A DNA stretch of 4,226 bases from the IMG/VR virus record IMGVR_UViG_2695420739_000014, positions 1-4,226 of that record; one strand, given 5' to 3'. The first letter of the stretch is position 1, and each line of letters begins with the position of its first letter. Below are positions 1-4,226 of this stretch, one piece after another. Source of the DNA: a virus. Its lineage: Duplodnaviria; Heunggongvirae; Uroviricota; Caudoviricetes. The translations under genes and the position numbers were made by a program. Under the pieces are notes generated by a model. It was not told the DNA's origin, did no database searches, and saw only the letters and a program-made list of their open reading frames with translations.

Positions 1-228
1 CGTGGCTGTCTGGAATATGACGTCAGCGCCACCGACATCACCAGCTCGTTTATGGCTATCCGCAAGAGCATGACCAGCAGCGGACGCAGCGCCACCTATG
101 AGGCCAGCCGCAGCGAGGAAGCCAGCCACGCCGACCTCGCCTGGGCGACCATGCATGCCCTGTTAAATGAGCCACTCACCGCCGGTATCAGCACCCCGCT
201 GACATCCACCATTCTGGAGTTTTACTGA
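1..228 (+). CDS. P: Terminase large (ATPase) subunit, C-terminal 75 codons only; the 5' end lies upstream of the window (P2 gpP-like)
   Basis: Frame 1 is open from base 1 to TGA at 226-228 (translation ends ...ASHADLAWATMHALLNEPLTAGISTPLTSTILEFY*). The stop overlaps the portal ATG as TGATG. Position directly upstream of the portal gene and co-oriented matches the P2 P-Q late operon. Not in the ORF track because it has no long start-to-stop ORF inside the window. Confidence 0.75.
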   Translation, partial: RGCLEYDVSATDITSSFMAIRKSMTSSGRSATYEASRSEEASHADLAWATMHALLNEPLTAGISTPLTSTILEFY

Positions 229-1262
229 TGAGCAAGAAAAAAGGGAAAACACCGCAACCTGCGGTAAAAAAAATGGCCGCCAGCGCCCCGAAAATGGAGG
301 CATTCACCTTTGGTGAGCCGGTGCCGGTGCTCGACCGCCGTGACATTCTGGATTACGTCGAATGTATCAGTAACGGCAGATGGTATGAGCCGCCGGTCAG
401 CTTTACCGGTCTGGCAAAAAGCCTGCGTGCTGCCGTGCATCACAGCTCACCGATTTACGTCAAACGCAATATTCTGGCCTCGACATTTATCCCACATCCG
501 TGGCTTTCCCAGCAGGATTTCAGCCGCTTTGTGCTGGATTTTCTGGTGTTCGGTAATGCGTTTCTGGAAAAGCGTTACAGCACCACCGGCAAGGTCATCA
601 GACTGGAAACCTCACCGGCAAAATATACCCGCCGTGGTGTGGAAGAGGATGTTTACTGGTGGGTGCCGTCCTTCAACGAGCCGACAGCCTTCGCACCCGG
701 CTCCGTGTTTCACCTGCTGGAGCCGGATATTAATCAGGAGCTGTACGGCCTGCCGGAATATCTCAGCGCCCTTAACTCTGCCTGGCTGAATGAGTCAGCC
801 ACGCTGTTCCGCCGCAAGTATTACGAAAACGGCGCTCATGCCGGATACATCATGTACGTCACCGATGCCGTGCAGGATCGCAACGATATCGAAATGCTTC
901 GCGAAAACATGGTTAAGTCGAAAGGCCGCAACAACTTTAAAAACCTGTTTCTCTATGCCCCGCAGGGGAAAGCTGACGGCATTAAAATTATCCCGCTCAG
1001 TGAAGTGGCGACGAAGGACGATTTTTTTAATATCAAAAAAGCCAGTGCCGCAGACCTGCTGGACGCGCACCGCATCCCCTTTCAGTTGATGGGCGGCAAG
1101 CCGGAGAACGTCGGGTCGCTGGGTGATATTGAGAAAGTGGCAAAGGTCTTTGTCCGCAATGAGCTTATCCCGTTACAGGACAGGATTCGGGAAATAAACG
1201 GCTGGCTCGGTCAGGAGGTCATCCGCTTTAAAAACTACTCACTGGACACTGACAACGGCTGA
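228..1262 (+). CDS. Q: Phage portal protein (P2 gpQ-like), 344 aa
   Basis: Complete ORF ATG 228 to TGA 1260-1262. GGAG at 216-219 sits 8 nt upstream of the ATG. The translation (MSKKKGKTPQP...EAFTFGEPVPVLDRRDILDYVECISNGRWYEPP...) is recognisable to me as the P2-family portal; length and position next to the terminase gene and about 170 bp from cos agree with P2. Confidence 0.93.
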   Translation: MSKKKGKTPQPAVKKMAASAPKMEAFTFGEPVPVLDRRDILDYVECISNGRWYEPPVSFTGLAKSLRAAVHHSSPIYVKRNILASTFIPHPWLSQQDFSRFVLDFLVFGNAFLEKRYSTTGKVIRLETSPAKYTRRGVEEDVYWWVPSFNEPTAFAPGSVFHLLEPDINQELYGLPEYLSALNSAWLNESATLFRRKYYENGAHAGYIMYVTDAVQDRNDIEMLRENMVKSKGRNNFKNLFLYAPQGKADGIKIIPLSEVATKDDFFNIKKASAADLLDAHRIPFQLMGGKPENVGSLGDIEKVAKVFVRNELIPLQDRIREINGWLGQEVIRFKNYSLDTDNG

Positions 1263-1267
1263 ACATC

Positions 1268-1289
1268 GCCGCCTGCGGGCGGCTTTTTT
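1268..1289 (+). terminator. Rho-independent terminator downstream of the portal gene
   Basis: Perfect 6-bp GC stem GCCGCC (1268-1273) / GGCGGC (1278-1283), 4-nt loop TGCG, followed directly by TTTTTT (1284-1289), starting 6 nt after the Q stop codon. Confidence 0.8.
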
Positions 1290-1431
1290 ACACCCTGTCA
1301 TCACGCCCTCACACGCTCACCACCGCACAAAACACCCCGCAGACACACCAACGCCTCAACGGGCAGACTAAACGCCGTCACGACGCGCTCAGACGCTGAA
1401 AAAATAAAATCAGCACCACCGCCAGCGCGCA

Positions 1432-1450
1432 GTGCTTTCCCCGCCTCGCC
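1432..1450. other. cos cohesive-end site of a P2-like phage (19 nt)
   Basis: GTGCTTTCCCCGCCTCGCC at 1432-1450 is the reverse complement of GGCGAGGCGGGGAAAGCAC, which I recall as the 19-nt cohesive end of phage P2. It lies in a gene-free gap between the portal gene and the converging replication/cargo genes, as in P2. Confidence 0.85.
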
Positions 1451-1540
1451 CGCCCGCTTCATGGGACGCTTTTAATGCAGGAGCATCAGGAGCCTCGCGC
1501 CGCGCCAGCGCTGGTGCTGACTGGCAAATTCTGAAATAAA

Positions 1541-1558
1541 AAACGAATGCAAATTCAT
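1541..1558 (-). terminator. Weak candidate intrinsic terminator downstream of the DUF2971-like gene
   Basis: On the - strand, 21 nt after the TAG stop: 6-bp AT-rich stem AUGAAU (1558-1553) / AUUCGU (1548-1543) with one G-U pair, loop UUGC, then UUUUUUAUUU. The stem is weak, so this is tentative. Confidence 0.3.
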
Positions 1559-1578
1559 GCACCGTATGTATGCAGAGG

Positions 1579-2397
1579 CTATTTAGACTCAAGTTGGATT
1601 TTATAATTTGTAAAATCAGCTTTTGCTGTCATTATTTCAATGCCATTTTTTTTGGCGAAATTTTCAATAAAAACTCGCATATCTCCGGATAGACGCTCGC
1701 CAATAATTATCGCATCAATGCAACATCCTTGCAGGGGAACTTCGATACCACTCTGATGTTCATAAACAGCCTCAGTATCGAGGAAATGCAAGCTTCTTAC
1801 CTCATCCTCTCGCTCCCAATCAGAATGTTTAACAAGTGCAAAATCAAAATTCACAGACACCGGTTCACCACGAGCCATCTCAAGGAGATATTTATAAAAA
1901 TCAACTCTAGGGGCTTTATCGTCATATGTAACATCAAAAAGTTCAATACCCGACCCCTTCAACCTTTCTCTATTATATGCAAAACATATTCCTTTCATTC
2001 CGTTTCCATAATAACCCCACATCAATCTACTATTATAGTTTTTAGTAAAACTTGCTACTGCAACATTCTTTTGAAACTCGATTAGAAAACCACTAGCAAA
2101 ACCGTCCCCCCACACTTCATCAAAGCGTTGATAAATCTTACCAAGCTCATTTTTATCTAATAGTTCTCGAAGCTCCCTCCCTTCACCTGTAATTTTATCC
2201 AATCTATCTATCAGGGTTGATATATCCGACTTATCGAAATACTTAAGGGATTCTTTATCAAAATGATAAAACATGTCAAATGGGTCATTAAGAATGCTAT
2301 TTTTGGAATGCCAAATAGCATTGTTAACAAGCTCATTTATAGTATTGATGTTATCCCCTCTAAACCTGAAGATATGAGTTGCACTTGAAAGAATCAT
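1579..2397 (-). CDS. DUF2971-like protein (272 aa), AT-rich accessory gene; candidate defence/abortive-infection effector, function unknown
   Basis: ORF from ATG (2397-2395) to TAG (1581-1579). AAGGGG Shine-Dalgarno-like sequence 5 nt upstream of the ATG. Spot counts give about 27-42% GC per 60-nt block against about 60% in the portal gene. Motifs I associate with DUF2971: N-terminal ...AIWHSKNSILNDPFDMF... and central ...LMWGYYGNGMKGICFAY... No Walker A P-loop. Confidence 0.8.
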   Translation of the reverse strand: MILSSATHIFRFRGDNINTINELVNNAIWHSKNSILNDPFDMFYHFDKESLKYFDKSDISTLIDRLDKITGEGRELRELLDKNELGKIYQRFDEVWGDGFASGFLIEFQKNVAVASFTKNYNSRLMWGYYGNGMKGICFAYNRERLKGSGIELFDVTYDDKAPRVDFYKYLLEMARGEPVSVNFDFALVKHSDWEREDEVRSLHFLDTEAVYEHQSGIEVPLQGCCIDAIIIGERLSGDMRVFIENFAKKNGIEIMTAKADFTNYKIQLESK

Positions 2398-2463
2398 TCT
2401 GGCCCCTTTTCAGCCGGTCAAGAAAAGTAAGACTCTAACGCCTCACTCGCTCGTTGTTCAACC

Positions 2464-2498
2464 CCGCCAGCACTGAAAGCAAGTTTCAGCACCAGCGG
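2464..2498. repeat. Imperfect inverted repeat in the intergenic gap upstream of the DUF2971-like gene
   Basis: 15-nt arms CCGCCAGCACTGAAA / TTTCAGCACCAGCGG pair at 11 of 15 positions around a 5-nt spacer GCAAG; the inner 6 bp (CTGAAA/TTTCAG, 2473-2489) are perfect. It sits between the small-ORF stop (2511) and the DUF2971-like start (2397). Confidence 0.4.
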
Positions 2499-2510
2499 TG
2501 TTTGCTATGG

Positions 2511-2741
2511 TCAACGTGGCCGCGGAATTATCGGACCTCTCGCTGGTATGAATGATCCATTTTGCTGATTGCTGATATCACGGAGCTTACCGTAATTATC
2601 CCTGACTATTTCGGCACACCCGACCAGCTCGTCAGGCGTCAGATTTTCGTTAACCATAATCTGCTGTAGACGGTGAACAATAGCCATCAGCTTGATATTT
2701 TTAGTTTTATGTTGCGGTATCTCGCCTGGTATTCTGTGCAT
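2511..2741 (-). CDS. Hypothetical small protein (76 aa from the ATG at 2741; the ORF-track start at 2753 is a GTG)
   Basis: ORF ends at TGA 2513-2511. The ATG at 2741-2739 overlaps the TAA stop (2743-2741) of the upstream gene as TAATG, suggesting translational coupling. No strong Shine-Dalgarno sequence and no family recognised (MHRIPGEIPQHKTKNIKLMAIVHRLQQIMVNENLTPDELVGCAEIVRDNYGKLRDISNQQNGSFIPARGPIIPRPR). Confidence 0.4.
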   Translation of the reverse strand: MHRIPGEIPQHKTKNIKLMAIVHRLQQIMVNENLTPDELVGCAEIVRDNYGKLRDISNQQNGSFIPARGPIIPRPR

Positions 2742-3196
2742 TATCCAAGCCACCCGTTTTGCTGTGCACGCTCCATCTGTTCATCTGAATAGTTCCATGC
2801 TCCATCCGTGGCAACCATTGCCCCGCCAGACATCCCCGTCTCTGGTTCATACATAACAGCAAGGCCGAGCTGATGCATAATTTCATGATTAATTCTGAAT
2901 ACCAGACCACGCTCACTAAGTTCTTTCCAGTTCACAATCTCATATGCGCCTGTATTAAGCAGCTCAATACTTAGCAAGACATAATCTTCCAGCCAGTCTG
3001 ACAGGTCAGTAACATCTGTTATCCGGGCTTCAACCTTTCGCCCCGTATACACACCCTGTACCCATTCATGCAAAATCAACGTGTCCCCGCGCTCATAATT
3101 ACGGTCATTTTTCCGAAACTCTGCGCGTTTCTTTCCTTCCAGCACAAGGTCAAAATATTTGGCGTGCAGCTTTACCTCGTGAATTTTTGCCATCAT
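2741..3196 (-). CDS. DUF3850/ASCH-like (PUA-fold) domain protein with C-terminal HExxH motif, 151 aa
   Basis: Start assigned to ATG 3196-3194, which overlaps the TGA stop of the A-like gene (3195-3193) as ATGA; GGAG lies 5 nt upstream. The ORF-track start at 3229 is a GTG inside the A coding region and is less likely. N-terminal MAKIHEVKLHAKYFDLVLEGKKRAEFRKNDRNYERGDTLILHEW... resembles DUF3850/ASCH domains. HEIMH is encoded at 2887..2873. Stop TAA 2743-2741. Confidence 0.75.
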   Translation of the reverse strand: MMAKIHEVKLHAKYFDLVLEGKKRAEFRKNDRNYERGDTLILHEWVQGVYTGRKVEARITDVTDLSDWLEDYVLLSIELLNTGAYEIVNWKELSERGLVFRINHEIMHQLGLAVMYEPETGMSGGAMVATDGAWNYSDEQMERAQQNGWLG

Positions 3197-4226
3197 TTCC
3201 ACTCCATTACTGTTGAGAATCCCGGCCACTCATCAGCGACCGGATACGTGAATTTTTTCCCGTCATAATTTACGGTCGCGCCACGCGCCAGCGCCTCAAG
3301 CTCCCATCGCTGCGGCCTGATACCGTTCTGAGCAAGGTCAACGCGGATACGGGTAATTTGCATTCTTTCCGACCGGGTCAGTCTGGCCGATGGTGCAATT
3401 TCATGTGGTTTTAACGGGCTTCCGTTTCTCTGCTGACGGTTTGGCGTTCGCAGGTCGTGTTTTAATGCGCCCCTGAGCGCCCTCACGACCTCCGGTTCAT
3501 TCCATTCAATAACACCGTCATCAACCAGATTAAGCACGGCTGCGGCGTGCTCAGAAGGTGTGGGAGCCGGTAACGAAGTATCACCACCGGTGAGCTTTCC
3601 ACAGTTATTGACAGGACTCCGAGGCGCGGCGATGCCGCTTTTTAAAGTCAGAGGCTCAACGACCGGAACTTTCGGCACAATGCGCCAGTCCGTCGTTCTG
3701 GTGATATGAATATGACGCGCGCCGAGATGCGGCGCGTAAATGCCGACCACTCTCTCGACTTCTTCCTCGTACTCGTTAACTTCATCCGACGGACTACGGG
3801 CGACCCTGACAGTCTGACAATCGCGCGGGACATTTGCCCCACCCTGCGCGCTGATATACAACGCAAAATCACCACTGTCTGCGGCGGCGCGTGCAGCCTC
3901 GACGCGCTCGTCAAACTCATCAGCAATGCTGACGCCGCGAGGCAATTTGCGTAGTTCACGGTAAGCCCCCATTGTCGGCAGACCAACCGTTTTAAATTGT
4001 GGGATGCGCCACGTTGACGCCCATGCGGTAACAGCCGCAGCAGTGTCTTTCAGCGGTCTGCCGGTATCGTTATCGAGCTGACCATCCAGTGCATAGCCAT
4101 CGATGTTTTTTGAGATGTATTTCGCGATATACCCCGCAGCACCGCCCTGGTTAAGGTGTTTTGCCTGAAAACGGTTTCGCGCGGCTCCTCTTTCGTCGCC
4201 ATCCTCTTTGAGCGCATAGCGACGCA
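3193..4226 (-). CDS. A: Rolling-circle replication initiator endonuclease (P2 gpA-like), C-terminal ~344 codons; the 5' end lies outside the window
   Basis: The - strand frame is open from the window edge (4224) to TGA 3195-3193; the ORF track shows only the part from the internal ATG at 3972. The translation contains GAAGYIAKYISKNIDG with two tyrosines four residues apart, matching the Y-x-x-K-Y active-site arrangement of P2 A as I recall it. If the first tyrosine is Y450, the implied total length is about 761 aa, the size I recall for P2 A. Confidence 0.85.
   Translation of the reverse strand, partial: RRYALKEDGDERGAARNRFQAKHLNQGGAAGYIAKYISKNIDGYALDGQLDNDTGRPLKDTAAAVTAWASTWRIPQFKTVGLPTMGAYRELRKLPRGVSIADEFDERVEAARAAADSGDFALYISAQGGANVPRDCQTVRVARSPSDEVNEYEEEVERVVGIYAPHLGARHIHITRTTDWRIVPKVPVVEPLTLKSGIAAPRSPVNNCGKLTGGDTSLPAPTPSEHAAAVLNLVDDGVIEWNEPEVVRALRGALKHDLRTPNRQQRNGSPLKPHEIAPSARLTRSERMQITRIRVDLAQNGIRPQRWELEALARGATVNYDGKKFTYPVADEWPGFSTVMEWK
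3608..3627 (-). other. Candidate replication origin / A-protein nick site inside the A coding region
   Basis: The - strand reads GCGCCTCGGAGTCCTGTCAA. The P2 ori is known to lie within gene A; I recall the nick-site sequence only approximately, so this is tentative. It is flanked on the + strand by a GC hairpin GCGGC-GAT-GCCGC (3626-3638) followed by TTTTT. Confidence 0.35.

Follow-up and report, generated by a model that had tools for sequence, protein, structure and literature searches.

Identity of a gene A segment of a P2-like phage with the mapped P2 replication origin, and a family-wide hairpin beside its nick site

Gene content of the window

The window, i.e. the whole stretch of DNA that was analysed (4226 nt), covers the junction region of the right and left ends of a P2-like phage or prophage and is reverse-complemented relative to the P2 record. 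The plus strand carries the terminase and portal genes, while the open reading frame list of the window places three cargo ORFs, followed by the 3' part of replication gene A, on the minus strand. The main features are:

1 to 228, plus strand: end of the terminase gene P
228 to 1262, plus strand: portal gene Q, with the cos region next to it
3193 to 4226, minus strand: 3' part of gene A (replication endonuclease gpA), comprising the last 344 codons and the stop codon; the 5' part of the gene is outside the window
4117 to 4131, minus strand: codons of the active-site motif Y-I-A-K-Y (Tyr450 and Tyr454 of P2 A), with the translation GYIAKYISKNIDGY

The gene A segment is 98.2% identical in nucleotide sequence and 99.1% identical in amino acid sequence to gene A of phage P2, and residues 1–44 of the fragment match the C-terminal end of the Pfam family PF05840 (Phage_GPA). 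Numbering of the two tyrosines was computed from the 761-aa P2 protein, and PMC3986222 cites the role of the two motif C tyrosines. The HUH-like motif PHWHM is present in the translated homologs of 186, PSP3 and vB_YenM_06.16-2, while the corresponding part of the gene studied here is outside the window. Both marks of the enzyme family, an HUH motif and catalytic tyrosine, are seen, the tyrosine motif in the window and the HUH-like motif in the homologs. A sequence search of the PDB revealed no solved structure of a sequence relative of gpA, and no Rfam match was found within the window.

The phage differs from P2 only outside the origin, such as in the cargo genes that lie between A/orf91 and cos. 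A 272-aa ORF (1579–2397, minus strand) occupies this interval at the position of tin/old in P2, where P2-like phages are known to have a defence hotspot. The ORF has matches to Pfam DUF2971 and to the PADLOC candidate defence family PDC-S31 (E = 6e-33). Near-identical DNA for this ORF is absent from the phage collection, where just 43% of window positions 1263–3192 is covered. The gene at the orf91 position (2741–3229, minus strand) encodes 162 aa against 91 codons in P2 orf91, contains a DUF3850/ASCH and a C-terminal DUF7415 domain, and overlaps the end of gene A with its start (3193–3229). The end of this ASCH gene is in turn overlapped by an 80-aa ORF (2511–2753, minus strand), for which neither Pfam nor PADLOC gave a match. 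Inspection by eye of the plus strand directly after the gene Q stop codon revealed the sequence GCCGCC-TGCG-GGCGGC followed by TTTTTT (1268–1290). This hairpin with its T run is likely to be the intrinsic terminator of the P-Q operon beside cos.

Identity with the mapped P2 nick site

The position of the P2 origin within gene A has been known from mapping since the 1990s, P2 needs this origin in cis for its replication, and gpA is known to act in cis. According to two published accounts, gpA nicks its origin at position 29,892, inside its own gene, and stays joined to the 5' end; among Peduovirinae the nick sequence is conserved (PMC8537503; PMC3986222). Passages of both papers, citing Liu & Haggard-Ljungquist 1994 and Odegrip & Haggard-Ljungquist 2001, describe gpA as covalently joined to the 5' end, with the 3'-OH priming leading-strand synthesis. 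A preliminary description of this DNA had pointed out that the minus strand at 3627..3608 resembles the P2 nick region. Our analysis finds it identical to P2, with the annotated nick at 29892 falling on window position 3620. The features concerned are:

3608 to 3627, minus strand: the 20-mer GCGCCTCGGAGTCCTGTCAA, the same in P2, fiAA91-ss and Yersinia phage vB_YenM_06.16-2
3619 to 3620, minus strand: probable nick between G3620 and G3619 of CTCG↓GAGT, +/- 1 nt

The 20-mer occurs only once in the window, even when up to 3 mismatches are allowed, and gave 0 matches in 200 dinucleotide-preserving shuffles. The alignment with the mapped P2 origin that the preliminary description had proposed as a check reveals 100% identity to P2 (AF063097) over window positions 3560–3700 (at least 141 nt). 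In the P2 record, 'rep_origin, nick site at ori' is annotated at 29892 (position 3702 of the extracted locus), which falls on the first G of CTCGGAGT. In the fiAA91-ss record, GCGCCTCGGAGTCCTGTCAAT is annotated as rep_origin 'located within gene A', whereas in the 186 record the origin, assigned 'by similarity with P2', is put at the second G of the homologous CGG. Because the P2 and 186 annotations point to the first and the second G, respectively, they place the nick between these two bases, and they agree with each other if one labels the base with the 3'-OH and the other the 5' base. The nick is therefore most likely located in CTCG↓GAGT, between positions 3620 and 3619, +/- 1 nt. The records give the nick without naming the strand that is cut, and its 5' and 3' sides refer throughout to the minus-strand (A-sense) reading.

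The origin lies in the part of gene A encoding the C-terminal part of gpA, around 500 nt downstream of the Tyr450/Tyr454 codons. It is thus situated inside a PF05840 gpA gene and 3' of the YxxxY motif, and it matches the mapped P2 nick site. In all of the loci examined (99 + 6) the origin is single-copy and occupies a homologous position inside the A/rep gene, and the origin annotation of 186 coincides with it. Taken together, the segment 3601–3638 of the minus strand is almost certainly the rolling-circle origin of a P2-type phage, located in the 3' part of gene A, and none of the observations speaks against this assignment. The presence of the P2 origin within gene A is already known and annotated in reference records. 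The value of our analysis as a discovery is accordingly small, and consists of the confirmation of a mapped origin together with two modest additions, namely the hairpin and a peptide that the origin dictates.

Synonymous-site constraint on the origin core

For the comparison of gene A across the family, 160 loci with A homologs were collected from bacterial genomes and viral contigs, in addition to annotated phages, and the region was codon-aligned. Removal of redundancy left 99 representatives (<92% nucleotide identity) which are 41–100% identical in amino acid sequence. The same-codon fraction was determined among sequence pairs sharing an amino acid, with the first 180 codons as the baseline. 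The most constrained element is:

3601 to 3624, minus strand: origin core CCT CGG AGT CCT GTC AAT AAC TGT (P-R-S-P-V-N-N-C), invariant at synonymous sites

The consensus of this core across the 99 homologs is CCT-NGG-AGT-YCT-GTC-AAT-AAC-TGT, a stretch of 24 nt which is almost invariant including its synonymous sites. In codons 201–208 (3624–3601) the same-codon fraction is 0.92–1.00 as compared to 0.44 +/- 0.12 (maximum 0.81) elsewhere. Third-position identity of the core is 0.99 both in the P2-like clade (n=48, baseline 0.44 +/- 0.05) and in the 186-like clade (n=39, baseline 0.40 +/- 0.06). Synonymous variation among P2-like A genes is therefore suppressed within 3600–3645, as the preliminary description had expected of a segment that both encodes A and acts in cis as its origin, and the loss is sharp at 3624–3601. 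Individual codons are held with the same strictness: AGT is found in 97/99, GTC in 93/99 and TGT in 96/99 of the homologs, and the two Asn codons AAT-AAC are never swapped.

Conservation of this kind could in principle originate from the protein, if R-S-P-V-N-N-C were a functional peptide motif of gpA (for example a contact containing the Cys) and its likeness to the nick region a mere consequence. The protein alignment agrees with this to the extent that the S, V, N, N and C residues of the peptide hardly vary. However, conserved catalytic motifs of gpA vary freely at synonymous sites, and AKYISKNID, the most conserved of them, has an ordinary same-codon fraction of 0.54, whereas the synonymous sites of the core are frozen. 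The common variants of the core are single-base changes with radical effects on the amino acid (CGG Arg, TGG Trp or AGG Arg; CCT Pro or TCT Ser), so that Arg/Trp and Pro/Ser replacements are tolerated at the cost of one base. Moreover, the core is flanked in the alignment of homologs by a gapped, unalignable linker, and its position is that of the annotated nick site. A Rahnella prophage (L039, 2040–2125), whose A gene is frameshifted just upstream of the origin, retains the intact core DNA in another frame, read as GVLSITV. Decay of the prophage or an error in sequencing is the probable cause. The codon-level conservation has led us to reject the protein-motif reading, which is largely refuted and which we regard as very improbable.

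On the evidence of the alignments, selection preserves the DNA of the core and not the encoded peptide, and the DNA-level constraint is real. Considering the frozen synonymous sites, the radical variants, the unalignable flanks and the frameshifted Rahnella locus, the peptide [R/W]-S-[P/S]-V-N-N-C would be a by-product of the origin being passively translated within a gpA linker that is variable elsewhere. The origin thus illustrates, cleanly and in numbers, how a cis-acting DNA element can override codon choice inside a gene.

A separate observation concerns a Photorhabdus prophage (L065, 2059–2136), in which a 6-nt tandem duplication, GAGTTC-GAGTTC, at the nick site adds two Ser codons. This duplication could be the footprint of aberrant cleavage and rejoining.

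The constrained element extends beyond the span initially described. It includes the core (3601–3624), the hairpin (3626–3638) and, in the P2-like clade, a flank reaching to about position 3672:

3639 to 3672, minus strand: upstream flank GTTGAGCCTCTGACTTTAAAAA, with the A5/T5 run and a TGAC inverted relative to GTCA of the core

Third-position identity in this flank is 0.72–0.84 versus 0.44 +/- 0.05 in clade I (P2-like) only, whereas clade II is not raised.

A conserved hairpin on the 5' side of the nick

Direct reading of the plus strand gives GCGGC at 3626–3630, GAT at 3631–3633, GCCGC at 3634–3638 and TTTTT at 3639–3643, exactly the GC hairpin with adjoining T run that had been pointed out in this place. 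The corresponding feature is:

3626 to 3638, strand not assigned: hairpin GCGGC-ATC-GCCGC (minus-strand reading), present in the centroid structure, with a conserved stem

In P2 as well as in the window, the minus strand reads AAAAA-GCGGC-ATC-GCCGC-GCCTCG↓GAGT, which leaves six unpaired nucleotides, GCCTCG, between the stem and the nick. Folding of the 81-nt region as single-stranded DNA gives z = 0.2 for the window and −1.5 for 186 relative to shuffles, and such a single-sequence fold is uninformative for a stem of 5 bp. The hairpin is considered more than chance because it is conserved with compensatory changes in the homologs.

Stems were detected in each sequence separately, as a perfect stem of at least 5 bp with a loop of 3–8 nt in the 24 nt upstream of the core, using 97 representatives. 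A stem of at least 5 bp is present in 79–80% of the 97 homologs, as against 6% of 7,633 windows from the same genes, 7% of GC-matched windows and 6.5% of shuffles. With the minimum stem length raised to 7 bp, the corresponding values are 20% in the homologs and 0.1% in the controls. In the great majority of the homologs the stem ends 4–7 nt 5' of the nick. The 5' arms represent at least 12 distinct stem sequences, and examples include GCGGT/ACCGC, GCGCC/GGCGC, GGCGGC/GCCGCC, GGCCGC/GCGGCC, GGACGGC/GCCGTCC, CGTGCG/CGCACG, GCGACGC/GCGTCGC, GCGGTGC/GCACCGC and, in 186, (A)GGGCGC/GCGCCC(T). In the gapless alignment (P2 register) the pair formed by columns 23 and 29 is CG in 31 sequences and GC in 30. 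Covariation amounts to 0.212, as compared to a shuffle mean of 0.128 (0/500 shuffles reach the observed value), and is also above that of all slid registers. Nearly all of the stem pairs are Watson-Crick G-C pairs, with a few of the G-U type.

With the gapless alignment as input, a covariance model (R1) was made in order to re-register the hairpins with 3-nt and 4-nt loops. The alignment stayed gapless, pair counts were unchanged and the 186-type register had a low score in the mixed alignment; for this reason we relied on the per-sequence hairpin detection with its controls. When used as a search model for hairpin plus core, it gave exactly one match per locus in 99/99 loci. It also gave one match inside the rep gene of each of six distant Peduoviridae, namely Vibrio K139, Salinivibrio SMHB1, Mannheimia PHL101, a Burkholderia phage, Haemophilus HP2 and Acidovorax Acica. 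Each of these distant relatives has a GC stem of its own, such as GCGCAC-GCA-GTGCGC in HP2 and GCGCGGC-TCT-GCCGCGC in Acica. Around 15–20% of the homologs are exceptions, mainly from a Rahnella/Serratia clade, with stems of 5–6 bp closing loops of 16–21 nt or with weak stems.

Within the 63-nt origin segment of a Pragia fontium locus (L041), the usual GC stem of 5–7 bp is replaced by GCGAAGCGC. This sequence contains GCGAAGC, a motif known as an unusually stable DNA mini-hairpin.

As far as can be judged from the homologs compared, the hairpin is conserved across the family as a structure and not as a sequence. The T5 run, which the preliminary description had joined to the hairpin, does not share this conservation. 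It is absent from the 186-like and more distant homologs, and the T5/A5 run corresponds to the Leu-Lys codons TTA-AAA of the P2-like clade, to which it is specific. This bears on the possibility that the hairpin and T5 (3626–3643, plus strand) act as an intrinsic terminator of antisense transcripts entering gene A. The simple pattern of such a terminator, a GC stem of 5 bp followed by T5, is indeed present. However, 3 such patterns occur in this 1 kb (expectation 1.2 +/- 1.3), the stem has no more than 5 bp, and no ORF or transcription unit of the plus strand ends here. In addition, the T run is missing in the 186-like phages, K139, HP2 and other homologs that keep the hairpin. The terminator reading has hence been rejected, as the T run is not conserved with the stem and a plus-strand gene end is lacking, and we consider it barely credible.

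An outer inverted repeat, TTGAC...GTCAA (3649–3653 versus 3607–3611), brackets the hairpin and the nick. P2-like and 186-like sequences both contain it, read in different frames. It does not form part of the centroid fold and is missing in K139, SMHB1 and several enterobacterial lineages. We therefore make no claim for it.

A description of the hairpin was not found in the literature searched, a set outside which the original 1993 and 1994 papers lie. Text matches to the nick sequence itself came from unrelated primer lists only. Its family-wide covariation is possibly an unreported, if modest, detail. It speaks for a function of this small hairpin. Together with the core, the hairpin also makes up a short signature (hairpin + CT-NGGAGTYCTGTCAATAACTGT) by which the origins of P2-like prophages could be located.

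Possible role of the hairpin in origin recognition

The arrangement described above suggests a concrete hypothesis for the recognition of the origin by gpA. It starts from the established action of gpA, an HUH-type enzyme with two active-site tyrosines, which nicks the origin and stays on the 5' end, with the 3'-OH priming rolling-circle synthesis. The 19 nt on the 3' side of the nick (GAGTYCTGTCAATAACTGT) might form the sequence-specific contact, which would remain attached to gpA. The GC hairpin located 4–7 nt 5' of the nick might serve as a structure-specific element for recognition or positioning on single-stranded origin DNA, much as the inverted repeat 5' of nic does for conjugative relaxases. 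It is possible that the hairpin acts at initiation, after local melting of the DNA, and/or at the termination and re-initiation cleavage of the displaced strand.

Being part of the A-sense strand, the hairpin also occurs in the A mRNA, where it might act in translational pausing, mRNA stability or the coupling behind the cis-action of gpA, either instead of or besides its action in origin DNA. The covariation is equally compatible with such a role, and the alignment does contain a few G-U-type pairs. However, the spacing of 4–7 nt from the nick is fixed across lineages that differ in their coding context. Such spacing is the standard substrate geometry of HUH nucleases and has no obvious meaning in an mRNA. 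The predominance of Watson-Crick G-C pairs also speaks against a function in RNA. We thus regard a role of the conserved hairpin in the mRNA as unlikely.

With respect to the origin DNA, we tentatively suggest that the GC hairpin could be an obligatory part of the Peduoviridae origin which is read by its structure, and that the gpA origin could be relaxase-like rather than phiX174-like, a proposal which we still regard as somewhat doubtful. If the hairpin has this role, a corollary would be that the origin dictates the peptide [R/W]S[P/S]VNNC in a free linker of gpA, so that a DNA function imposes protein sequence.

Comparison with known systems

The origin in the window is without difference from that of P2 (AF063097, 29892), with which it shares the same sequence over at least 141 nt, the same position in gene A and the same hairpin. 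In coliphage 186 and PSP3, where the origin is annotated by similarity inside gene A, the core CTCGGAGTTCTGTCAATAACTGT is present at homologous codons with a hairpin immediately 5' of it. However, the hairpin of 186/PSP3 is different (GGGCGC-TTCT-GCGCCC); it is in another register, has 6–7 bp and a 4-nt loop, and is devoid of the A5/T5 run. Beyond the core, the protein flanks in 186/PSP3 are unrelated to those of the window.

The gene A protein of phiX174 is an HUH Rep protein with two tyrosines, which has its origin in its own cis-acting gene, nicks after a G and becomes covalently attached to the 5' end. These features are shared with the present case, and the likeness in arrangement lies in the location of the origin inside the initiator's own cis-acting gene. 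In sequence, the phiX174 origin is not known to resemble the P2 origin apart from a short AATAAC, and the 30-nt origin of phiX174 is not known to depend on a flanking hairpin.

The nic sites of conjugative relaxases, such as TrwC of R388 and TraI of the F oriT, have a GC-rich inverted repeat a few nucleotides 5' of the nick on the strand that is cleaved, and the cleaving enzyme is of the HUH type. Relaxases mainly read the 5' side of nic. The origin described here has a like architecture, with a conserved stem-loop a few nucleotides 5' of the nick that shows compensatory changes, and its stem is conserved while its sequence turns over. However, gpA is a replication initiator and not a relaxase, and the strongest conservation in its origin is found 3' of the nick (19 nt), as opposed to the 5' side that is read by the relaxases.
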